Source: a virus | Reading direction: 5' to 3' (one strand) | Virus record (IMG/VR): IMGVR_UViG_3300043411_000952 | Span: 10,194-74,193 of that record | DNA length: 64,000 bases | Shown: piece after piece, positions 9,003-64,000 of the stretch | How the letters are laid out: each line of letters opens with the position of its first letter | How positions within the stretch are numbered: the first letter of the stretch is position 1 | Program-made: the position numbers and the translations under genes | Notes under the pieces: model-generated | Told to the model about the DNA's origin: nothing | Seen by the model: only the letters and a program-made list of their open reading frames with translations | Database searches by the model: none

Positions 9003-10445
9003 ATGAGTAAAGAAGTTCACCTCATGTGGGATGATTCTGTACTGACTATTGCCCCTTCCAGTCCTGCATTGGAAAAGTTTCTGACTTATAGGGAAAAGAA
9101 GTTGGCTCAGGATCCGAATTGCCCATGGAAAAAAGTTACTAAGGTAACTGTAAATCCTTTATACAAAGTCATAAATCAGCAGAATGGATACAATGTTATC
9201 CAGACGATGCAGGGTATGTGGTTGAAAGTAAAAACATTTTTAGAGGATAAAGGCTACGACGTAAAGTTCTACGACATGCGTTTAGCTTTCCCTAAACCTC
9301 GCTTAGACCTGATGTGCGGATTTAGATTTAAACAAGAAGAACTCCTTACTTCCTTTTTAAGTACAAATTGTAGCGGACTATTAGGTGCGCCCACTCGGTA
9401 TGGGAAGACGGTCCTAATCAAAAATACTATACGTGCGTATCCAAATGTACACACAGTAGTCACTGCTCCCGGTGCAGATTTGGTAAAACAACTGTATGAA
9501 GACATTAAAGAAGCGTTACCTCATAGGGAGGTAAAACTAATAGGCGCAGGTTCTACTAAGAGTCCATGCGATGACATTAATGTCGTAAGCATGGATAGCT
9601 TGCATAAGTGCGATGCCGCCGCTTGTAGATTATTATTAGTTGATGAGCCACATGCGTGTGTCACAGACAGTCGTTTACCTGAGCTAGCCAAATTCGATAA
9701 GGCACGTCGTATTGGGTTCGGTGCTACTCTTAAAGGTAGATTTGATCAGCGCGATATTCTTATTGAAGCGCTGCTTGGTCCGGTTATTGCAGAGCGCACA
9801 TTCCAAGAAGCTGTAGCTGAAGGTGCTGTGTGCCCTCTTATTGTGTACATGGTCGTGATGCCTTTAGCAGGTAATTCGGATGACCGTGATCGCGCATACA
9901 AGACGCATCTATTTAAAGGTGAGCGCGTAGCTAAGGCTGTGCGCTGGATTTGTCATGAGCTTCTCCCTCAAGACTGGCAGACCTTGCTCTTTATTAAAAA
10001 TGAAGACCAGGCTGAATACTTTCTAGATTGGGTTGGGCAGGACGGTACTATCGCCATGGCCAAACGCATGACCAAGAAGGAGCGAGAGGAGTTAATGGAA
10101 AGAATGCGTGGCGCTGAAATCAAACGCTGCCTGGCTAGTGAAATATATGCACAGGGTGTGACCTTCAACCATGTGCGCGCTCTTATTAATTTAAGTGGCG
10201 GAGGCGCTAACACATCCACAATTCAAAAACCTGGCAGGCTTGCGGAAGTACGGCCAGATAAGAAGTGTGGTGTTGTGTTTGATTTCTTCTTCACTCCGGG
10301 AACAGGTAGGGGGAACGGGATTCAAGCTTTATATCGCGAGTCCCTGGCTCGAGTTAAAGCATACACAGAAAAAGGTTACGAAATTATTTTCGTAGACGGG
10401 TATAATGAACTCGAGTCCTCGTTTAAATCCAAAGCCATATCTTGA
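9003..10445 (+). CDS. Superfamily 2 helicase (UvsW/Rad25-like)
   Basis: APTRYGKT, VDEPH, GAT, QGV and QKPGRL motifs. Confidence 0.88.
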   Translation: MSKEVHLMWDDSVLTIAPSSPALEKFLTYREKKLAQDPNCPWKKVTKVTVNPLYKVINQQNGYNVIQTMQGMWLKVKTFLEDKGYDVKFYDMRLAFPKPRLDLMCGFRFKQEELLTSFLSTNCSGLLGAPTRYGKTVLIKNTIRAYPNVHTVVTAPGADLVKQLYEDIKEALPHREVKLIGAGSTKSPCDDINVVSMDSLHKCDAAACRLLLVDEPHACVTDSRLPELAKFDKARRIGFGATLKGRFDQRDILIEALLGPVIAERTFQEAVAEGAVCPLIVYMVVMPLAGNSDDRDRAYKTHLFKGERVAKAVRWICHELLPQDWQTLLFIKNEDQAEYFLDWVGQDGTIAMAKRMTKKEREELMERMRGAEIKRCLASEIYAQGVTFNHVRALINLSGGGANTSTIQKPGRLAEVRPDKKCGVVFDFFFTPGTGRGNGIQALYRESLARVKAYTEKGYEIIFVDGYNELESSFKSKAIS

Positions 10446-16818: not shown

Positions 16819-17017
16819 GCTTACAACCAGGCTGGCTCATCTTGAGAAATTAAAAGATGAGCCAGTCATGGAAGATTTTGATGCTGGGCTTCGCGCCGCG
16901 CGTTACGACGAGTATGTATTTATAAAAGAGGTATTGAAAGTATATGGAGAATCAAACGAAGGACAAGGTAGTACCTGTTCCAGACTACACTCTCCCGCCG
17001 TTACAGTATCTCGATAA
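16796..17017 (+). CDS. Hypothetical protein
   Basis: 73 aa ORF overlapping both neighbours. Confidence 0.45.
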   Translation: MDKKLNLKLTTRLAHLEKLKDEPVMEDFDAGLRAARYDEYVFIKEVLKVYGESNEGQGSTCSRLHSPAVTVSR

Positions 17018-20000
17018 GACAGGGACTGTTCGCGGGCATAATGGTGTTACATTTGTTTCTGGGGAAGGCATAAAGCCAGCCGATATAATGTTTATTACTT
17101 CCTGCGTATCCCCGCAGGAGGCTAGTAAATTTCTTAAAGGCAGAGACGGAGGGCAGGGCGTCCGGGTGCAGCCTCGTTATCTGAGGTCAGACGCCGGTGT
17201 TATGTTCTCTGATATTTTTAATCAGGAGGGTATCGATCTTTATAAGTGCTACTACACAGCGCTGGTCAAATGGTTGCTGCCCAAGAATGAACGCATTAAG
17301 ATACCGAAAGATGTAGTGGCTTGGGCGCTTCCCTCACTAGAAGAAGAGATAGCTCTCGTAAGCCCTAAGATCATTGTATGTATCGGCAAACCTGTCTTTG
17401 ATCTTCTAGCAAATATAAAGCTGTCTTTGAGTGACGCCAAAAGCGGTTGGTTTTATAGCGAGAAGTACAACGCTAAAATATATCTCCTCGATGATACATA
17501 TAAGCTTGTCTCTAACCCGGAGTACATTGGAAAGTTCCAGGTAGAAGCTAGAGAAATTAATAGGATGTATAAGGAGATATGTAATGTATCCACCGGACGC
17601 ATTCCTTTAGAGTATGAGACAATTACTAATTCCTCTGATCTTAAAAGAGTAGTTAGCAATTGGAAACAGAATAATTTTGATGTAATTAGTGTGGACTGTG
17701 AGTGGTCTGGTAACAACCATATAGACGGTAAATTACGCAGCACGCAATTTTGCTGGGCCCCCGGTAAGGCATGTTATGTCCGCTGGATGGATGACAAGGG
17801 TAATTACACCTTTGATATTTCGTATAAAGAAGCAGGCGCTATACTTTCAGAGTGGTTAGATTTAGAAGATGTAAAATACATCGGGCATCACTTTGCTGCT
17901 GACGCCCCATGGTTGCATCATGTACTAGGACTTAATTGGTATGAGAAGTGTATTTTCGATACCGAGTTTGCGCAACAAACTGCTAATGAGGCCGAGGACC
18001 TTTCCTTAGAGCGAATAGCCCTGAAGTACACGGATTTAGGAAGGTATGACCTAGATCTTGTGTTGTGGGTTAAACAGAACAAGGCATTAATGGTGGATGG
18101 TGGCTACGGCGCTATTCCGGATGAGATTCTTATACCTTATGCGTGTTTACGCCAAGAAAGTTTAGTACAGCTAGGCGATGGATCTTGGTGTAAAATTAAA
18201 GATCTAGTTAACAGTAAATATGCAGGAGAAGTTAAGGCTGTATTAAATGGTAAAGTACAGAATTGCAAAGTTACTAACTGGTACAAAGTCAATACCAGAC
18301 AAAAAGTGTGGAAGAGGTTAGTAACTAAATATGCACAGAGAGGAAAGCATGGTTACTTAGGTCCGGTATTAACCCCTGATCATAAGGTAATAACGCAGAG
18401 AGGTAAGGTAGCAGTGCAGGATATTATACCTGGAAAGGATAGTATTTGTACGTCTTACAATACTTTTACGTCTACACAATTATCTGTATTTTTAGGTTGT
18501 CTACTAGGCGATGGCGGCATCGCGAGGAGAAACAAAGCGCACGCTGGTTTAGTTATGAGCCAGTGTGAAAAACGCGCTGATTATTTGAAGTGGAAAGTTA
18601 ATGTACTTTTTGGTGACCCTGAAAATGTAGAATCAAAAGGTTCTTTATGCGCTTATAGATCCAAGTACACTCCATACATTGCCGCGTTATCGGATACATG
18701 GGAGAGAAAAGAGGCCTTGGCGCATAGTAAAAGAAAATTATTAATTACTGAAAATTTACTAGACCATCTTCAAGCGCCGGGAATAGCTGTCTGGTATCAA
18801 GATGATGGTAACCTAACTTGCGGTAACGAGGTACGTATTACTATTTACCATTTACAAGAGCAGGAGCTTGCCGCCTTACGTTCTTGGTTTAGAAGCAATA
18901 TGGGTGTGTATGTTAAATATAGAAAAAATCAGAATCATATATGCTTTTCAGTTAAAGATTCTGTTGTTTTTTTAAATTATATTAAAGATTATATACATAA
19001 TGATTGCGGATATAAAACCAATGTTCCGTATAATTTGAAGGTCAACGCGCATATACCAGGTCCTTTGTACTTTGAACCTATTGTTGGTATTAGTGACGTA
19101 CCGGTCAAACCTTGTAGCGGTGATGGTATTCGTTACTGCTTAGCTGTAGATAAAGCGGAGAACTTCTTAACTAAGTCTGGTTTTGTTTCTAACTGCAAAG
19201 ACGTAGATACTGTCTTTAGAGCATGGCCAATTATTCAGCGGAGTCTGCAGGCTCAAGATCTTCTAGACTATTATAATAATATATTTCATCCGTTTGTTAC
19301 GGATGTATTTGTGAGTTTCGCCTTGGTTGGCCTTCCTATGGATGTAGCCATGATGGACGAGCTTAGAGTTTTATACACGTTTGCTAGAGACAAAATGGAA
19401 GTTATCCTGCGTGAGGAGATTCATGTAGAGGCTAAGAACTTTGTTTTAATGGCATTTGCAACTAGGTTACCTCCTGAGCTTGCTACTGAAAAATATTTAG
19501 AGTTCATTTCTTTAATAGCTAATTCAGAGCATATGGAGGCCTGGGCGGTGCTTAAAGGATCCGCTAAAAAGCCTGATGATGTACCTAAACTTAAACATAT
19601 ATTCGACCACTTTATTGACAGCGCGCATTTCAATATTAGATCTTCAACACAGTTAAAACGCTGGTTATTTAATGTTAAGTGTTACGAGCCTGTAAAGTCG
19701 ACTGGTAATAAGGAGAAAGGGCTACCTGCAACATCATGGGAAAAGATTAAGTCCATGCCGCCAGAGGCCCAGAAGAATTATAATCCTGCTGTTGATAAAC
19801 AAACGCTGCAGATTTTATCTGAACAGAATAATGACGCGCTGCTTCGTAGGTTATTACAATTGAACGCTGTAGGTAATATATGTAAAGCTTTCCTTAAAGA
19901 GGCCGACATAGATGCTGACGGTAACGTTGTAAAAGAGAACGGGCTACATTTTTACCTATGCAGCGATAATCGTGTGCATGGGCAAATGAGTACCACAGAA

Positions 20001-23000
20001 ACCGGAAGACCCCGGTGCGTCCACGGTGACACTTTAATACGTTGTTTTGATGGTTTTAAACGTATAAGAGATATTAAAATTGGTGACCTTGTCTGGACAC
20101 ATTTAAACAGATGGAGAAAAGTAGAGGATACATATATTAAGCCAGCGGCCCCCATGTATAAGGTAAGTTTTGAAAATGGGGAAGTACTGTTATGTACTGA
20201 GGAACATTTACTATTGACCGAAGCTGGAAAGTGGATATCTGTTAGAGATGTCTGTTTGCAAAAAGCATTTAAACAATCCGGAACTGAGGAAGAAAGTTGT
20301 TTCTCTTTACCGAGAGTCCTTGAGCACCGCCGAGCAAGTAGCGGAGATTTTGAATATAACTCCGCATACTACTTATCGAATACTTCGTCTAGAGTTAGGC
20401 GAGGAAGAATTCAAAAAGCTCAAAGCGATAAAATACTCGAGCTCAAAGCTGGGAGAGAAGAATCCTTGGAAAGGGAAGAGGGGGGAAGAGGCCGCGACCT
20501 GGAAGGGGGATTGCGACGATGGTTACGGTTATTTAACACGCCTAATAGATGGCCAACGTTACTTCGTACATCGTATAGTCATGGCAGAGGCGCTGGGTAT
20601 ACATCCCTCGCAGTTGCCGGATCATCTAGCTGTGCATCATATAGATCAGGATCGGAAAAACAACGCACTAGACAACTTAGCGCTCTGCACCACATCCGGG
20701 CACAGAGGTATCCACGAAAGATACAAACATACCGATCAGGAATTAAAATTAAAGGGGTTGTCCCTTGCGGAAGCTATCCAGTATATGACATCTCCGTAGA
20801 GGAGGATCATTCCTACGAGGCGTCCGGTTGTTTTTCGCACAATTCTTGGAAACCAAACTCGTTGAATTGGCCTAGCTATGTTAACTCCATGATTTCTAAT
20901 GGTATAGCTGGTCTTTTTGGTAAACTAAAAGAACGCGGAGAATTACCAGAAGAGTTTGAGAAGTTTATTATTAAAAATGATAAGGGGGAATACAAGAGTG
21001 AGGTACCTTCTATACGCAGTTGCGTTAAAGCTCCTGAAGGTTGGTGCTTTGTAGAGTCCGATTATCAGACTGCGGAAATTAGAGGACTAGCCTTTGTATC
21101 AGGGGATAAAAACCTAATTGATATTGTTTGTAACCCCGATTTAAATTTTGCGGTTACTAAAGATGATAAAAAAGTTCGGCTGGCTTTTCCTCCTGAAGTG
21201 TTTCCTCCTTCCACACAGGAAGAGTATAAACACCTCCTTATTTCCCCGGATGATCCATCCTTAATAAGAAAAGATGACGGTTCTTTGAAACATCCTAAAC
21301 AGGACCTACATTGGTCTTTGGCTGAGATGGTTCATATTAAACCTAGAGAAGTACTTGACGAAAAGAAAGACCGTGGTGCTGCTAAGGTAGGTAACTTCAG
21401 CTGCGTTAATAAATATACAAAAATACGTACAGAAAAAGGTGTTCTAAGCATAGAAGACGCGATAATTTATGGTTGTACTTATGTATGGGATGGTTTAGAT
21501 ATGGTGTCTTATGATTCCATACAATACCAAGGAAATAGATTCACAATTAATTACCAAGGACTGTCCGCAACCCCAGACCATGTTGTCTGGCTCTCAAGTG
21601 GAGAAAAGTGTTGTTTCGGAGAAGCTGCCTTGCGAGGTCTCAGTATTAAATCGTATAGCGGCTTTGAATTGGATACGGCTGGTAGCAGACACAAGAACAA
21701 TAGAACGCGCAAGAAAAGGCATCATATTTATGGTGCGGTGTCAAAGGTGTCAGAAAACAACGCGCAGGTGGTTACACAACGTGGAGGCGGGCAAAGGTCT
21801 AAAATGTCGATGCCTGTCTCCTTTGCGATACAACGACCCACGCGCGCGCACACTAGGCGCAAGGTATCAAGCTATGCGTCAAAGGTGTTTTCTAGACAGC
21901 CATGTCAGCAGCTACAATTACAAGGGGCGAGGCATAAAACTAATATTCAAAAGTCGCAGAGAATTTATTTTATGGGCGCTTCAAAGATGGCCGGATACAG
22001 ACTTCAAAGGTTTGGATTTCGACAGAATAAACAACGATGGCCACTACTCGAAGGGCAACCTACGTTTGGTCACAAGGCAAGAAAATTTAAGAAATACGAG
22101 AGCTTCTCGCTGGTCCTACCGCGTACGCGCCGAGAAGTTATTAAAAGACAACCCAGGTGTGAGTGTCTCTATGAAAACGTTATGGGGCATGCTGCAAATG
22201 GGGTATTCGGAAGAAGAAATACTTCTAAGGATAAAGTCTGGAGAAATAAAGAGCCGGAAGGCAATATTAGCAAATGCGAAAGTATTGCAAGCCAGGAATT
22301 TAATAAGATTAAATCCGGGCTTGGTTGTAGGAGAGAAACATATAATGAGTCTATATCGGAAAGGATTAACCGATCAGGATATAATAGAACATGTGGCGAA
22401 GCACGAAGAGTTAACTTTGCGTATTCGTCAGGCGAAGCAGCGCAGAGAAAACTCTTTGCAGCGATCGGCTCGTATAGGTATAGGCTTCGCGGCCAGTACT
22501 ACAAGAAAGATGATACGAGAAGGTCTATCCGACGAGCAATTGCTGGCGGCGTGGGAAAAATCGTATGTAAAGTCAGAATCAATCAGGCAGAAGATAGAGA
22601 GGCTTGGCTTGAAGCTCAGCGTATCTACTACGCACAGGTTGATGAAGCAGGGCATGTCGGACGCGCAGTTAGAAGAATATTCGAAGAAAAGGGTTTTAAG
22701 CTCACAAAAGAGCCAGTATACGATATAATAAACGCAGGACCAAGGCATAGATTTGTTGCCAGTGGCTTGCTTATATCTAATTCGGCATACGGCGCGTCCG
22801 CCTCAACCCTGGAACGCAAAATTGAACAGGATACAGGTAAGAAGCCAGAAGAAGGTACAGGTCAGCGGTTATTGAAGGCGCTTGAAAAACGTCAGCCAGT
22901 AGCACAAGACTTTTTAATTAAAATGGAACGTGTACCAGAGAAGCCCGGATATTACCGCGCAGCATCTGGAAGAATTCGTCATTTCGCTTCCCATGATCCA

Positions 23001-23387
23001 AAATACCTGGATGACATTGACGAGCATTTGACTATGGGCTTGTTTAAGTCTATGGGTAGAGAAGCTCGCAATTTCCCGATGCAGGAGAGTGTAGCTGCCA
23101 CCGCTGCGCGAGCAGGTAAATGGCTGCTAGATGCTTACATCAAGTTAAATATGCAGGCTAGACCATTGATTATTTTATATGATTCCGTTGTTACTCTTTG
23201 TCCACTTGAAGAACGATTTAAGGTTGCGCAATTGCACCAGCTCTTTATGACGGATGAGAACACATGGGAGTACCATGGAAGAAAAATGTCGTACCCTATC
23301 GACAGCGACTTCGTATATCGTTGGTCGGCTAAACCTGATAAAGATGATAAAAAATTGCTAGAAGATAAAACTTACAAAACCAACTGA
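16944..23387 (+). CDS. polA: Family A DNA polymerase precursor: UDG-like N-terminal domain, 3'-5' exonuclease, polymerase, three inteins (mature ~1061 aa)
   Basis: ExoI VDCE, ExoIII YA|CKD, TETGR, motif A DYQTAEIR, motif B R.AAK.GNFS|SAYG, NFPMQ, motif C YDS; N-terminal YYTALVK...EEEI..VSPKIIVCIGK. Confidence 0.93.
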   Translation: MENQTKDKVVPVPDYTLPPLQYLDKTGTVRGHNGVTFVSGEGIKPADIMFITSCVSPQEASKFLKGRDGGQGVRVQPRYLRSDAGVMFSDIFNQEGIDLYKCYYTALVKWLLPKNERIKIPKDVVAWALPSLEEEIALVSPKIIVCIGKPVFDLLANIKLSLSDAKSGWFYSEKYNAKIYLLDDTYKLVSNPEYIGKFQVEAREINRMYKEICNVSTGRIPLEYETITNSSDLKRVVSNWKQNNFDVISVDCEWSGNNHIDGKLRSTQFCWAPGKACYVRWMDDKGNYTFDISYKEAGAILSEWLDLEDVKYIGHHFAADAPWLHHVLGLNWYEKCIFDTEFAQQTANEAEDLSLERIALKYTDLGRYDLDLVLWVKQNKALMVDGGYGAIPDEILIPYACLRQESLVQLGDGSWCKIKDLVNSKYAGEVKAVLNGKVQNCKVTNWYKVNTRQKVWKRLVTKYAQRGKHGYLGPVLTPDHKVITQRGKVAVQDIIPGKDSICTSYNTFTSTQLSVFLGCLLGDGGIARRNKAHAGLVMSQCEKRADYLKWKVNVLFGDPENVESKGSLCAYRSKYTPYIAALSDTWERKEALAHSKRKLLITENLLDHLQAPGIAVWYQDDGNLTCGNEVRITIYHLQEQELAALRSWFRSNMGVYVKYRKNQNHICFSVKDSVVFLNYIKDYIHNDCGYKTNVPYNLKVNAHIPGPLYFEPIVGISDVPVKPCSGDGIRYCLAVDKAENFLTKSGFVSNCKDVDTVFRAWPIIQRSLQAQDLLDYYNNIFHPFVTDVFVSFALVGLPMDVAMMDELRVLYTFARDKMEVILREEIHVEAKNFVLMAFATRLPPELATEKYLEFISLIANSEHMEAWAVLKGSAKKPDDVPKLKHIFDHFIDSAHFNIRSSTQLKRWLFNVKCYEPVKSTGNKEKGLPATSWEKIKSMPPEAQKNYNPAVDKQTLQILSEQNNDALLRRLLQLNAVGNICKAFLKEADIDADGNVVKENGLHFYLCSDNRVHGQMSTTETGRPRCVHGDTLIRCFDGFKRIRDIKIGDLVWTHLNRWRKVEDTYIKPAAPMYKVSFENGEVLLCTEEHLLLTEAGKWISVRDVCLQKAFKQSGTEEESCFSLPRVLEHRRASSGDFEYNSAYYLSNTSSRVRRGRIQKAQSDKILELKAGREESLEREEGGRGRDLEGGLRRWLRLFNTPNRWPTLLRTSYSHGRGAGYTSLAVAGSSSCASYRSGSEKQRTRQLSALHHIRAQRYPRKIQTYRSGIKIKGVVPCGSYPVYDISVEEDHSYEASGCFSHNSWKPNSLNWPSYVNSMISNGIAGLFGKLKERGELPEEFEKFIIKNDKGEYKSEVPSIRSCVKAPEGWCFVESDYQTAEIRGLAFVSGDKNLIDIVCNPDLNFAVTKDDKKVRLAFPPEVFPPSTQEEYKHLLISPDDPSLIRKDDGSLKHPKQDLHWSLAEMVHIKPREVLDEKKDRGAAKVGNFSCVNKYTKIRTEKGVLSIEDAIIYGCTYVWDGLDMVSYDSIQYQGNRFTINYQGLSATPDHVVWLSSGEKCCFGEAALRGLSIKSYSGFELDTAGSRHKNNRTRKKRHHIYGAVSKVSENNAQVVTQRGGGQRSKMSMPVSFAIQRPTRAHTRRKVSSYASKVFSRQPCQQLQLQGARHKTNIQKSQRIYFMGASKMAGYRLQRFGFRQNKQRWPLLEGQPTFGHKARKFKKYESFSLVLPRTRREVIKRQPRCECLYENVMGHAANGVFGRRNTSKDKVWRNKEPEGNISKCESIASQEFNKIKSGLGCRRETYNESISERINRSGYNRTCGEARRVNFAYSSGEAAQRKLFAAIGSYRYRLRGQYYKKDDTRRSIRRAIAGGVGKIVCKVRINQAEDREAWLEAQRIYYAQVDEAGHVGRAVRRIFEEKGFKLTKEPVYDIINAGPRHRFVASGLLISNSAYGASASTLERKIEQDTGKKPEEGTGQRLLKALEKRQPVAQDFLIKMERVPEKPGYYRAASGRIRHFASHDPKYLDDIDEHLTMGLFKSMGREARNFPMQESVAATAARAGKWLLDAYIKLNMQARPLIILYDSVVTLCPLEERFKVAQLHQLFMTDENTWEYHGRKMSYPIDSDFVYRWSAKPDKDDKKLLEDKTYKTN
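18144..19193 (+). mobile_element. Intein 1 of DNA polymerase (350 aa) with in-frame LAGLIDADG endonuclease
   Basis: Starts CLRQESLV, block B LTPDHKV, LGCLLGDG and WYQDDG, ends FVSN followed by Cys; sits in ExoIII. Confidence 0.92.
20016..20843 (+). mobile_element. Intein 2 of DNA polymerase (276 aa), endonuclease out of frame
   Basis: Starts CVHGDTLI, block B CTEEH, block F VYDISVEEDHSY, ends SHN followed by Ser. Confidence 0.92.
20248..20799 (+). CDS. HNH endonuclease (HTH + NUMOD-like + HNH) nested in +1 frame inside intein 2
   Basis: GEKNPWKG, VHRIVMAEALG, VHHIDQDRKNNALDNLALCT..GH..IH. Confidence 0.85.
   Translation: MSVCKKHLNNPELRKKVVSLYRESLSTAEQVAEILNITPHTTYRILRLELGEEEFKKLKAIKYSSSKLGEKNPWKGKRGEEAATWKGDCDDGYGYLTRLIDGQRYFVHRIVMAEALGIHPSQLPDHLAVHHIDQDRKNNALDNLALCTTSGHRGIHERYKHTDQELKLKGLSLAEAIQYMTSP
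21402..22781 (+). mobile_element. Intein 3 of DNA polymerase (460 aa), endonuclease out of frame
   Basis: Starts CVNKYTKI, block B ATPDHVV, block F VYDIINAGPRHRF, ends ISN followed by Ser; sits in motif B. Confidence 0.9.
21511..22728 (+). CDS. HNH-family endonuclease with C-terminal tandem helical repeats, nested in +1 frame inside intein 3 (true start probably TTG 21664 or ATG 21730)
   Basis: Cys pairs, YQAMRQRC...Y.GRGI, DFDRINNDGHYSKGNLRLVTRQENLRN, then four G(Y/L/M)(S/T)(D/E)xx(I/L) repeats. Confidence 0.82.
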   Translation: MIPYNTKEIDSQLITKDCPQPQTMLSGSQVEKSVVSEKLPCEVSVLNRIAALNWIRLVADTRTIERARKGIIFMVRCQRCQKTTRRWLHNVEAGKGLKCRCLSPLRYNDPRARTLGARYQAMRQRCFLDSHVSSYNYKGRGIKLIFKSRREFILWALQRWPDTDFKGLDFDRINNDGHYSKGNLRLVTRQENLRNTRASRWSYRVRAEKLLKDNPGVSVSMKTLWGMLQMGYSEEEILLRIKSGEIKSRKAILANAKVLQARNLIRLNPGLVVGEKHIMSLYRKGLTDQDIIEHVAKHEELTLRIRQAKQRRENSLQRSARIGIGFAASTTRKMIREGLSDEQLLAAWEKSYVKSESIRQKIERLGLKLSVSTTHRLMKQGMSDAQLEEYSKKRVLSSQKSQYTI

Positions 23388-51587: not shown

Positions 51588-51944
51588 TTATTTATTGAAA
51601 ACTTGTTTGTATGCCTGGTTGTGCGTTAATTTGTTTTTGGTAATGAGATCGCACATTTGAGCAATATTTTTCAATGAGAGTTCTGGATTATGAATTTCTC
51701 CATGGCAGTTGTGGCATACCAAAGCGCACTTGCTAAGCTCTTCTTCAGCGCCACGCAGAGACAATGTAATCAGATAAGTTCCTGACAGCCTTGTAACTTT
51801 ATCTCTTATGTGGTGAAAAGCTAAACTCGAAATATTCTTTTTGTATCCGCATATCACGCACTTACCTCCTGCCTTTTTTATGAGACCGTACTTCCTTGTT
51901 AGTCTCATTACTCTATTTCTTTTTGAAGATGAGGGACTAGGCAT
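51588..51944 (-). CDS. Free-standing HNH endonuclease
   Basis: GGKCVICGYKKN..SLAFHH ... ELSKCALVCHNCHGEIH; ATG 51944 follows TTGCCG-N16-TATATT on the - strand. Confidence 0.82.
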   Translation of the reverse strand: MPSPSSSKRNRVMRLTRKYGLIKKAGGKCVICGYKKNISSLAFHHIRDKVTRLSGTYLITLSLRGAEEELSKCALVCHNCHGEIHNPELSLKNIAQMCDLITKNKLTHNQAYKQVFNK

Positions 51945-52091
51945 GATGTAATATACGGTAAGTGGCGTAGGCGGCAAGCCATCTTCAGAGCGTATCGTTT
52001 GCGTTCTTTGACCTCGAGTGAGGTTGACATGCATTTATCAAATAAACTCTTGCGCTAAGAGGGATATTGGTTAATGCATGGAATTCTCTTT

Positions 52092-52166
52092 ACCCGGTTC
52101 GTTCAAAGGATAGGACAGAGCTCTTCTAAAGCTTTAATAGGGGTTCGATTCCCTTACCGGGTACCA
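52092..52166 (+). tRNA. tRNA-Arg(TCT)
   Basis: ACCCGGT/ACCGGGT acceptor, GAGCT-CTTCTAA-AGCTT anticodon arm, GGTTCGATTCC, encoded CCA. Confidence 0.93.
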
Positions 52167-52190: not shown

Positions 52191-52265
52191 AGGGGTATAG
52201 CTCAGCGGTAGAGCGGCATCTTGATAAGGTGCATGTCGTAGGTTCAAATCCTACTATCCCTACCA
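52191..52265 (+). tRNA. tRNA-Ile(GAT)
   Basis: AGGGGTA/TATCCCT acceptor, GCATC-TTGATAA-GGTGC, GGTTCAAATCC, CCA. Confidence 0.93.
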
Positions 52266-52288
52266 ATTTTCGGCTCGTAGCTCAATGG

Positions 52289-52852
52289 TTAGAGCAGGGA
52301 ACTTAAAGCGTCAGTATCTAAGTTCATGTAAGGGTAGTGTTTCTCGGCGTGACAGTTAGCACATAATAACTCGCATTTCTCCATTTCTTCTTCCAGCCTT
52401 TTTAAACTGGTGTTGGATAGCGCTCTGGAGTCTATCGAGAATTTTTTTGTTTTACTATCTTGGTGGTGAAAGTGTAACGCAGCTAAATTTTTTTTGTAGC
52501 CGCAGCAATAGCACGCACCGCCTAGTAGTTTTATAAAAGCTAATTTTCTCGTTAACGCGCGCCCTTGTTGGTATGCATAATTGTTTGTTTCTGTTGCGCC
52601 AGTGCAAGATTTGGATTTGGATTTGCATGTTTTTGAACAGAATTTCACGGCGTTACCTTTCAAGTAGGCAGTACATATTTCGCATTTCGCGTTATTGTGT
52701 TCTTTACTTTTGGGTGCGTGTAGTTTTATTCTGTTGCCTTCTCCAAATGGGCTGCAGGTTAGGCAGTATTTTCTATTGCCGAAATTCCTGCACTTTCCAT
52801 TTATATGCACTTGAGTTTTAAATTCGGTTCCGCAGAGATTACATTTTTTCAT
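52289..52852 (-). CDS. Intron-encoded HNH homing endonuclease, antisense to the intron
   Basis: N-terminal Cys pairs; GGACYCCGYKKNLAALHFHH ... EMEKCELLCANCHAEKH. Confidence 0.85.
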   Translation of the reverse strand: MKKCNLCGTEFKTQVHINGKCRNFGNRKYCLTCSPFGEGNRIKLHAPKSKEHNNAKCEICTAYLKGNAVKFCSKTCKSKSKSCTGATETNNYAYQQGRALTRKLAFIKLLGGACYCCGYKKNLAALHFHHQDSKTKKFSIDSRALSNTSLKRLEEEMEKCELLCANCHAEKHYPYMNLDTDALSSLL

Positions 52853-53127
52853 ACCTTATAATATACATGAATATGATATTAGCGCAAGGGTCACTTATGA
52901 AGTAATTCATACTTGCATGTCGTCAAATTCGGTGGAGGCTTCTTTAATAAGATGTTAATACCGAGCCAAGCTTTTTAACGTCTTGTATGTTAAAAAGAAG
53001 GTGTAGAGACTTGATGGCGACTTCCCCACTTCAATTTAATGAAAGGGAAAAGGTAAAGTCCAAGACTCAAACTGAAAAGTGTTGAAAAACAATACTTACG
53101 TAAAGTGTTGATAATCAACGAGTTAAG
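52304..53127 (+). mobile_element. Group I intron (IC3-like core), 824 nt, inserted after U33
   Basis: Exon ends in U, intron ends in G; core elements AAATTCGGTGGAGG, AATACCGAGCCAAGC, GAAGGTGTAGAGACT, AAGGTAAAGTCC. Confidence 0.88.
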
Positions 53128-53196
53128 CATAATTCCTTGGTTGGGGGTTCGAATCCCTCCGGGCCGACTACTTTCGTTAGATAAACAAAACACAGA

Positions 53197-53616
53197 ATGA
53201 ATGTAACAAAATTAGTTGATCCCAATTGTGTCAGTCGTATGAACGTGAGTGACCTCACGGGTGCGTTAATTTACTGTCACTCTCCTTATAATGATCTAGA
53301 GGTTGAAGGTTCATATTCTGAAGATCCTGAAACAATGTTTTATGTAGGACTTGAGACTGATGACAATTGTCTAGCTGATCATCTCAGTATAAACGATTGG
53401 CTCTCCTCCATACCTGAATTTTCTAACAGTTCAAAGTATGAATTTGATTTTGGCGTGGCAGAATGTCTACATACTGTCAGAGTTAGAGTAGGCCCCAGTC
53501 TGGCGACTGCTGCTGAAATTGAAGTCGCTTTAAATTTCATTAAGGATGTGCTGACTAAGTATACTAATTCTCTTGGTATTCCTTTGTCCTACTCTATTGA
53601 TGATTCTTTACTTTAA
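53197..53616 (+). CDS. Hypothetical protein
   Basis: 139 aa acidic ORF. Confidence 0.6.
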   Translation: MNVTKLVDPNCVSRMNVSDLTGALIYCHSPYNDLEVEGSYSEDPETMFYVGLETDDNCLADHLSINDWLSSIPEFSNSSKYEFDFGVAECLHTVRVRVGPSLATAAEIEVALNFIKDVLTKYTNSLGIPLSYSIDDSLL

Positions 53617-53620
53617 CAAT

Positions 53621-53840
53621 TTGTCTTACGTGTATGAGGTAAGTCCTAAACACGAAAGCTGGTGAGGAACGGGTTAATATACGTCAGCCTCAGCCTAGCC
53701 AAGACAGCTAATTTGCCTATCGTGCCTGTGCTGGCCGATACCGATACCATGACGAGCGTAGTCCTCTGGACCGACATGCGGTAGAAGTGTAATAGAGCAC
53801 AAACCCGAGGGCTCCCAGGGAACTCTTACAGCGATAGGCA
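53621..53840 (+). ncRNA. Two adjacent self-closing structured RNAs (53622-53706 and 53714-53840)
   Basis: Closing stems TGTCTT/AAGACA and TGCCTATCG/CGATAGGCA with internal hairpins; each preceded by AATTT. Confidence 0.5.
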
Positions 53841-53849
53841 TTAATTTTT

Positions 53850-53972
53850 GCATGTGTGAACGAGCGGTTAAAGTTTGACACTAGGAAGAGCGGAAGGGTC
53901 CGGAGAGCTAGTACTCCATACATTTCGATGTTACCCTACCACCCGCAGGTTCGAATCCTGCCGCGCTCGCCA
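53850..53972 (+). other. Atypical or degenerate tRNA-like element
   Basis: GCAGG-TTCGAAT-CCTGC T-arm, CGCGCTC-G-CCA end, D-loop-like AACGAGCGGTTAAAGTT; no canonical anticodon arm. Confidence 0.55.
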
Positions 53973-55756: not shown

Positions 55757-55848
55757 GGCCCAGTGGCGAAACGGCTGAAACGCATGGGATTTAAAATCCT
55801 ATACCCTCGAGGTAAACACTGTCGGTTCGAATCCGACCTGGGCCACCA
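55757..55848 (+). tRNA. tRNA-Leu(TAA)
   Basis: GGCCCAG/CTGGGCC acceptor, TGGGA-TTTAAAA-TCCTA, long variable arm, GGTTCGAATCC, CCA. Confidence 0.93.
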
Positions 55849-63757: not shown

Positions 63758-64000
63758 CCTGTTTGGGATTCTGTGAATGATTCTGTTAGTAATTCTGTTT
63801 GGAATTCTGTATATAATTCTGTTATGGATTCTGTTAGTAAATCTGTTTATAATTCTGTTATGGATTCTGTTAGTAAATCTGTATATAATTCTGTTATGGA
63901 TTCTGTTAGTAAATCTGTTTATAATTCTGTTAGGAATTCTGTTTATAATTATGTTTGGAGTTCTGTTTATAATTATGTTTATAATTCTGTTAGGAATTCT
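63758..64000 (+). repeat. 12-bp-period degenerate tandem repeat, running off the window
   Basis: About 20 units of (A/G)AT-TCT-GTT-NNN, translating as (N/D/K)-S-V-x. Confidence 0.9.

Follow-up and report, generated by a model that had tools for sequence, protein, structure and literature searches.

The endonuclease I-Ssp6803I, a PD-(D/E)XK enzyme, belongs to the tRNA-fMet(CAU) intron of the cyanobacterium Synechocystis PCC 6803. This intron is of the IC3 type and interrupts its CAU tRNA at a CU|CAUAA junction. It represents the class 'fMet.2Ug', inserted after the second nucleotide of the anticodon loop, which together with Leu.3Ug, Arg.5Ug and Ile2.5Ug makes up the four classical classes of bacterial tRNA introns; the survey that describes them adds 17 new cases and states that introns over about 400 bp may hold genes (Williams 2020, bioRxiv 10.1101/2020.01.27.920355). 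The class 'Ile2.5Ug' is that of the Azoarcus tRNA-Ile(CAU) intron, a bacterial element with an IC3-type core and a short P1, placed after U36 (CAU|AA) and devoid of an ORF. Endonuclease genes that run opposite to the ribozyme within a non-coding RNA gene are known from group I introns of nuclear rDNA (for example L2066), where they encode His-Cys-box enzymes (PMC9548176). In phages, T4 SegB and other free-standing endonucleases are encoded among tRNA genes and target tRNA gene DNA (PMC2330249). As for phage introns, all those known by 2014 were stated to interrupt protein-coding genes, despite the many tRNAs that phages carry (Hausner et al. 2014, PMC3984707).

The locus described here shares traits with each of these systems and differs from each of them. 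It lies in a window of 64,000 nt, the whole stretch of DNA that was analysed, which covers positions 10,194 to 74,193 of the 74-kb IMG/VR record IMGVR_UViG_3300043411_000952, estimated to be about 41% complete. Nearly all genes of the window are on the + strand, where they form a phage replication and recombination module with SbcCD, a DnaB-like helicase, a UvsX-like recombinase and an intein-bearing family A DNA polymerase. Within a group of tRNA genes, a tRNA(CAU) gene is split by a group I intron that holds an HNH gene on the opposite strand (see the table). Like the intron of I-Ssp6803I, it has an IC3-type core, a CAU tRNA as host, a CU|CAUAA junction and an endonuclease gene, but the host tRNA is Ile2-like rather than initiator, the enzyme is an HNH protein encoded on the other strand with a predicted promoter of its own, and the carrier is a phage. 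The insertion site itself had been recognised in a sequence-only reading of the window as one already known from cyanobacteria, in keeping with 'fMet.2Ug' as defined in the survey (Williams 2020). With the Azoarcus intron it has in common the tRNA species, the type of core and the short P1, unlike it in site, gene content and host. The nuclear rDNA cases are eukaryotic, are expressed by Pol II with spliceosomal introns, belong to another nuclease family and another intron subgroup, and have no overlap between promoter and guide sequence (PMC9548176). SegB is a GIY-YIG enzyme encoded outside introns, whereas the intronic nuclease of the window is of the HNH type. In the papers that could be searched, the text of Williams (2020) among them, we found no account of a phage or bacterial tRNA intron that holds an HNH gene in antisense.

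We consider it highly probable that the element is a mobile IC3-type group I intron of a phage tRNA-Ile2(CAU) gene, equipped with an antisense HNH homing endonuclease. Its anatomy and exact boundaries, the empty site, the covariation of ribozyme and P1, the family of the HNH protein and the conservation of the promoter are observed; splicing, DNA cleavage, the target and the Ile2 identity in vivo are predicted from sequence.

Table. Features of the split tRNA(CAU) locus and its surroundings, in positions of the window
Feature	Positions	Strand	Remarks
Free-standing second HNH gene	51588-52034	-	just upstream of tRNA-Arg(UCU); from ORF list and PHROG
tRNA-Arg(tct)	52092-52166		ARAGORN
tRNA-Ile(gat)	52191-52265		ARAGORN
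tRNA(CAU) 5' exon	52271-52303	+	positions 1-33: acceptor 5' strand, D arm, anticodon stem 5' strand, C32, U33
Group I intron, IC3-like	52304-53127	+	824 nt; 5' splice site, P1 loop with antisense ORF, guide sequence, P2-P9, terminal G 53127
HNH homing-endonuclease gene (predicted)	52289-52852	-	187 aa; N-terminal Cys-rich zinc-ribbon-like part and C-terminal HNH domain
-10-like hexamer TATATT	52860-52865	-	16 nt after the -35, 7 nt before the ATG at 52852
-35-like hexamer TTGCGC	52882-52887	-	adjoins the guide sequence; relatives read TTGACA or a near match
Internal guide sequence GGGU	52888-52891	+	P1 3' strand; alignment A3
P2 hairpin	52892-52915	+	GUAA (GNRA) loop; 8 of 10 consensus pairs form here, 9 of 10 covary in the family
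Catalytic core	52919-53060	+	the window's copy has 30 of the 31 consensus pairs of the core
P3	52919-24/53016-21	+	
P4-P5	52928-39/52954-65	+	
P6	52971-75/52993-97	+	
P7	53008-11/53057-60	+	
P8	53022-27/53044-49	+	
P9 region	53064-53127	+	GAAA-capped hairpin and lineage-specific extra hairpins; peripheral alignment less certain
tRNA(CAU) 3' exon	53128-53167	+	positions 34-73: C34 A35 U36, remaining anticodon arm, variable loop, T arm, acceptor 3' strand, discriminator A
tRNA-Leu(taa)	55757-55848		ARAGORN

Splice boundaries and identity of the tRNA

When the two exons are joined, ARAGORN (run on 52271-52303 plus 53128-53168) folds them into a canonical 73-nt tRNA(CAU) cloverleaf; CCA is not encoded in the 3' exon. 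With introns allowed, the program finds the same gene with its 824-nt intron but, as it imposes the canonical intron position, takes it for tRNA-Leu, while its default run misses the gene altogether, a double caution for the annotation of such loci. The U that ends the 5' exon (U33, 52303) and the G that ends the intron (53127) are the sole U/G placement that leaves a 7-nt loop, CUCAUAA, and the ligated product of the predicted splicing would read ...GGGAACU/CAUAAUUCC...

An uninterrupted counterpart sets the same limits. In a syntenic relative (L013, record IMGVR_UViG_3300044627_004253), tRNA-Arg(tct) is followed by an intact tRNA(cat), a conserved 115-nt element, a phrog_5931 gene and tRNA-Leu(taa), and this tRNA(cat) is identical to the joined exons at 72 of 74 positions. 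The blastn alignment of the window with L013 ends at 52303 and resumes at 53128, on adjacent bases of L013. Thus 52304-53127 is an insertion with exactly the proposed boundaries and the junction is CU|CAUAA, which upholds the insertion after U33 (CT|CATAA in the DNA) proposed in the sequence-only reading; the other elements described there are likewise present at the positions it gave. Since the flanking genes of L013 are 65-69% identical to those of the window, L013 is a distant relative and leaves recent mobility of the intron unproven. The 5' exon is also 100% identical, over 52278-52303, to two other intronless alleles (L003 and L033), and 43 viral contigs have the 25-mer expected from ligation in uninterrupted form. 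A joint of 52303 to 53128 was further seen in two contigs of the sequencing data (X10, with 27 nt on the shorter side); it is indistinguishable from the intron-less tRNA genes of other organisms and was discarded as evidence of splicing.

The intron belongs to a family. A metagenome scan with the HNH alignment gathered 80 loci, and in about 35 of them the HNH gene sits inside a split tRNA called by ARAGORN, mostly on the opposite strand. Once splice sites had been re-derived, at least 29 distinct metagenomic introns, the window's copy included, were found to have a tRNA(CAU) host, the CU|CAUAA junction and an antisense HNH gene, and their tRNAs are Ile2-like too. One member (L186) repeats the gene order of the window, with tRNA-Arg(tct) and tRNA-Ile(gat) ahead of the split tRNA(cat).

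From these sequences we conclude that the split tRNA is Ile2-like and not an fMet tRNA, as first suggested from its paired 1-72. C1 pairs with G72 and the anticodon stem reads GGGAA/UUCCU with G27.U43, which are not initiator features; the unpaired 1-72 and the three G-C pairs at 29-31/39-41 that mark an initiator are not found. The L013 allele was compared with 5,426 complete E. coli genomes, and among the matches listed the best one in every genome is a PGAP-annotated tRNA-Ile carrying CAT. The D arm, G27.U43, the anticodon loop and the variable region are common to the phage tRNA and E. coli tRNA-Ile(CAT). A tRNA-Ile2(CAU) reads AUA once its C34 has been converted to lysidine, and the acceptor pairs C4-G69 and C5-G68 are determinants for E. 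coli TilS. Both pairs are present in the L013 allele and in the family members with a GGGCCC acceptor, and the window's tRNA has C4-G69, with U5.G68 at position 5-68. Lysidine formation and charging with isoleucine are predictions for this tRNA, and the codon usage of the phage (AUA at 16 per 1000 codons, 28% of its Ile codons) and its other tRNAs, which include readers of AGA and UUA, fit a role as AUA reader.

Ribozyme and P1 helix

The Rfam model RF00028 matches 52868-53084 of the + strand with 59.4 bits (E 1.5e-12; gathering score 50). The core motifs GUCAAAUUCGG, CCGAGCCAAG and GGUGUAGAGACU are ones that we take to be common to this intron and that of Azoarcus. The sequence-only reading had rightly called a group I intron here, with a catalytic core confined to about 52915-53127; the ribozyme part in fact begins further upstream, at the guide sequence, which is followed directly by P2. 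A structural alignment from the guide sequence to the 3' splice site (alignment A3) compares the window's copy with 15 relatives. Standard pairs occupy 96.6% of the cells in its helices, versus 34-50% when the 3' partners are slid, and 34 of the 51 pairs show compensatory changes, versus a mean of 15.9 in shuffles; not one of 500 shuffles attains the score of the real alignment. The window's copy has 44 of the 51 consensus pairs, almost the whole of P3-P8 among them (see the table), and departs from the family consensus in P9 and P9a, where 3 of 7 pairs form. The omega G that precedes the 3' splice site is G53127, its boundary being set by the empty site of L013, and a 3-bp helix (53064-66/53122-24) adjoins it.

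The guide sequence, with an invariant GGG and then C or U, is found about 190-250 nt upstream of the 3' splice site. It lies 3' of the ORF, and so the HNH gene occupies the P1 loop. In the window P1 is short, with four pairs: G52888.U52304, G52889.U52303 (the wobble at the splice site), G52890-C52302 and U52891-A52301; the next nucleotide, A30, faces C52892 unpaired. The pairs made with intron position +1, exon position -1 (U.G) and exon position -2 form in all 29 members of the family. The -3 pair covaries: an exon A goes with a guide U (in the window's copy, read from alignment A3, and in L165, L189 and L218) and an exon G with a guide C. A local 7-bp hairpin, GAACUUA/UAAGUUC, in which U33 would pair with A, was tried as P1 and rejected, because it lacks conservation and its stability does not exceed that of shuffles; the conservation of UCUAAGU at the 5' splice site stems from the NLD motif of the protein encoded on the opposite strand.

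As a side observation, IC3-type cores lie inside split tRNA genes in 60 of the 119 core-pattern matches in viral contigs. Most of the viral tRNAs split in this way are tRNA-Leu(UAA), interrupted after U34, and the others include Arg(CCU), Arg(UCU), Thr, Ser and Lys as well as CAU tRNAs interrupted after U36.

The antisense HNH gene and its promoter

The antisense ORF seen in the 5' part of the intron is indeed an HNH gene. Its product matches PHROG 2255 'HNH endonuclease' over residues 1-181 (E 2e-32) and four more PHROG families with the same annotation, among them 3106, 4234 and 35854; 213 homologues were found at an E of 1e-5 or better. Eight residues are invariant across 42 homologues and make up the CxxC, HH, N and CxxCH motifs (C114, C117, H129, H130, C164, N166, C167 and H168). 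H172 is nearly invariant, as is C160, which lies outside the zinc site. When the AlphaFold model, confident at a mean pLDDT of 86, was compared with solved structures for the beta-beta-alpha-metal fold of HNH enzymes, it gave weak matches, with a Foldseek E above 0.5 and a VIA Z of at most 2.8; the best of these weak rows are mostly HNH nuclease domains (Cap5, Cas9 HNH, Gme HNH) along with T4 endonuclease VII. The 187-aa protein has no match to the Pfam HNH model PF01844 and no meaningful match in a sequence search of the PDB. The free-standing paralogue upstream of the tRNA genes, which is shorter and 35% identical to the intronic protein, scores 20.6 bits against PF01844, for a cut-off of 21.4. 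A scan of viral contigs with the HNH protein found no relative among the records available to it, and an exact 22-mer of the core had no match. Among isolated phages, tblastn gave only three weak or moderate matches; a tRNA-Leu-type intron is present in LR756501, and in LR756504 the HNH gene lies beside a tRNA(cat) that is intact.

The gene ends inside the tRNA. Read in antisense, tRNA positions 19-33 (52289-52303) encode the last four residues and the stop of the protein (SSLL*), and four relatives (P0001-P0004, 56-95% identity) all end in LSSLL*, so that the same exon would follow in them, probably at the same position, as judged from the C terminus only. The sequence-only reading had correctly noticed this overlap and proposed that the exon serves two functions. 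The stop codon (TAA or TGA) straddles the splice site in 18 of 29 members, where it consists of the antisense of U33 and of the first two intron bases; in only 4 of 29, the window's included, does the ORF run in a different frame 15 nt into the exon, to a TTA or TCA in the D loop. The overlap is a minority variant of the rule that the ORF fills the P1 loop completely, and its 'dual use' therefore looks incidental rather than functional.

A promoter-like element had also been attributed to this gene. A generic promoter and terminator scan of the region gave sites at chance level only, and the window's own -35 is weak, TTGCGC matching at 3 of 6 positions; the claim stands by conservation across relatives. 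Upstream of the ATG most of them have CCC-TTGACA or a near match, about 17 nt, TAnnnT, about 6 nt and then the start codon, and most are free of a Shine-Dalgarno sequence there. In 18 of 29 members the distance from the end of TAnnnT to the ATG is 4-9 nt, most often 6 nt exactly. On the + strand, the -35 box corresponds to the nucleotides that directly precede the guide sequence. A conserved sigma-70-type promoter thus probably drives the HNH gene, and its spacing from the ATG predicts a leaderless or near-leaderless mRNA.

Proposed mechanism, alternatives and significance

A model can be proposed for this probably mobile intron with its putative antisense homing endonuclease. The pre-tRNA would be transcribed together with the neighbouring tRNA genes, and the guide sequence would pair with A31-C32-U33 of the exon across a loop of about 580 nt. 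As the core P3-P8 folds, two transesterifications would excise the intron and join CU to CAUAA; the anticodon loop that TilS and IleRS act on would exist only after splicing. On the other strand, the sigma-70-type promoter would yield the leaderless or near-leaderless mRNA of a zinc-ribbon HNH endonuclease, whose most likely task is to nick or cut the intron-less tRNA-Ile2 genes of co-infecting relatives; repair of these genes would copy the intron in (homing). The antisense arrangement may keep ribosomes off the folding ribozyme and give the nuclease an expression of its own, and the nuclease mRNA may be restrained by the abundance of the sense RNA.

The HNH gene might instead be an independent endonuclease of the free-standing type that has lodged in the P1 loop and serves its own spread or competition between phages (marker exclusion in tRNA clusters), rather than the mobility of the intron as a unit. 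Enzymes of the same family do occur free-standing in tRNA clusters: at 51588-52034 of the window, in Bacillus phage Anthony and at many of the scanned loci, where they stand beside tRNA genes, and SegB provides a known precedent in T4 (PMC2330249). However, intron and HNH gene have been kept as a block at one site in 29 diverged members, and the stop codon is tied to the splice site as the promoter is to the guide sequence, which argues for long co-evolution as a single element and makes an independent nuclease an unlikely reading.

Still less likely is the regulation suggested in the sequence-only reading, by which splicing, and with it the availability of the AUA-decoding tRNA during infection, would be controlled from the antisense strand. 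Transcription of that strand would throttle splicing, or the HNH mRNA would do so by pairing with the P1 loop, with the 5' splice site and with 15 nt of exon. Full complementarity of the two transcripts does extend over about 580 nt, splice site included, the -35 box adjoins the guide sequence, and the phage is rich in AUA, as is the HNH gene of the window itself, in which all five Ile codons are AUA. But the exon overlap is limited to the 4 of 29 members noted above, and the AUA bias is not family-wide, with 20 of 121 Ile codons in relatives; a feedback through the AUA codons of the HNH gene was discarded for the same reason. tRNA genes are usually transcribed far more strongly than a nuclease gene with a weak promoter, and with such a difference the sense RNA is likelier to suppress the antisense RNA than the reverse. 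A coupled two-strand switch, by which transcription of either strand would set the output of the other, with a timed release of the AUA tRNA and the nuclease held down by the excised intron, seems to us equally improbable; if true, its regulatory logic would be one not described for any bacterial or phage intron. The least credible of the alternatives is a decaying relic, with a ribozyme that no longer splices, a tRNA(CAU) pseudogene and a drifting ORF: P1 is indeed short, only 3 of 7 pairs form in P9 and P9a, and a second tRNA(CAU) was not found in the 74-kb record (about 41% complete), but 30 of 31 core pairs are intact with compensatory changes, the U.G wobble and terminal G are present, the ORF is intact with all its invariant residues, and near-identical copies occur in independent samples.

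Near-identical intron-bearing copies come from sequencing runs of 12 studies of freshwater, wastewater and groundwater; four runs were compared, three of them labelled 'RNA-Seq cDNA' but probably DNA. A wastewater copy has 4 differences in 1005 nt and its flanks are replaced on both sides, and such near-identity within different flanks indicates that the element persists in nature.

Together with the other loci gathered here, this locus contradicts the statement of 2014 that phage introns are confined to protein-coding genes, as IC3-type introns are common in viral tRNA genes. They include a large sub-family in which a backwards endonuclease gene, with its promoter adjoining the guide sequence and its stop codon tied to the splice site, gives an unusually compact two-strand design. 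The family also supplies small HNH enzymes with a probable specificity for the DNA of tRNA-Ile2 genes, and it offers a natural system for understanding how a nuclease gene lives inside a non-translated, highly transcribed RNA gene.

HNH genes at the tRNA cluster

A second HNH gene lies close to the split tRNA(CAU), whose group I intron carries an HNH gene on the opposite strand (52289-52852). This free-standing gene (see table) shares 35% identity with the intronic one and belongs to the same family, and it forms a divergent pair with the tRNA-Arg(UCU) at 52092. Apart from the known intron, no further group I match is found between 51000 and 56000 of the window at E-values up to 1. In one of the wastewater variants, metagenomic contigs with near-identical intron-bearing copies but different flanks, bases 52009-52163 are replaced by 645 others. 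All five Ile codons of the intronic gene are AUA, versus 28% AUA in the long genes of the phage; among its family relatives AUA accounts for 20 of 121 Ile codons, and exclusive AUA usage is not common to them.

In four contigs with HNH genes of this family (L191, L195, L198 and L235), the HNH gene and a split tRNA called by ARAGORN are on one strand. The split tRNA of L198 looks like a CAU type, split after U36.

Features of the window discussed here
Feature	Position	Strand	Description
Family A DNA polymerase ORF	16944-23387	+	2147 aa
Second HNH gene	51588-52034	-	148 aa, free-standing; PHROG 2255, E 2e-16
Variable insertion	53175-53853		just 3' of split tRNA; missing from L013
ORF within the insertion	53197-53616		139 aa
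Non-coding element	53854-53968	+	115 nt

Variable and conserved DNA downstream of the split tRNA

Where the window has the variable insertion, the wastewater contigs have 69-101 nt. The ORF within it has no family match, and its high-GC part upstream of the non-coding element (53640-53850) has no ORF above about 50 codons. The element itself is 93% identical to its counterpart in L013, the syntenic viral relative with an uninterrupted tRNA(CAU), while identity is 65-69% for the flanking genes. Its 3' end is a perfect T arm followed by the 3' strand of an acceptor stem and CCA. Neither ARAGORN nor Rfam makes a call on the element, and its folding energy is not better than that of shuffles (z 0.21).

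Homing elements in the phage and in viral tRNA genes

The phage genome carries a heavy load of homing elements. Pfam matches in the polymerase ORF comprise UDG, 3'-5' exonuclease and LAGLIDADG, and an intein-splicing match scores 24.7 bits, under the curated cut-off of 35.8 bits; together they point to at least one putative intein. At 63759-64000 the DNA is repetitive, with many staggered blastn matches to two places in L013, and resembles a repeat, tandem or dispersed, that both phages share.

Among 119 viral contigs (L045-L163), all matches to a single core pattern, 60 have the IC3-type ribozyme core enclosed in a split tRNA gene. The majority of these genes are tRNA-Leu(UAA), split after U34. 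In Arg(CCU) and CAU genes the interruption follows position 36; further split genes are those for Arg(UCU), Thr(UGU), Ser(UGA) and Lys(UUU). In three cases the introns are about 700 nt long. Because half of these contigs have the core inside a split tRNA, group I introns appear to be common in viral tRNA genes.
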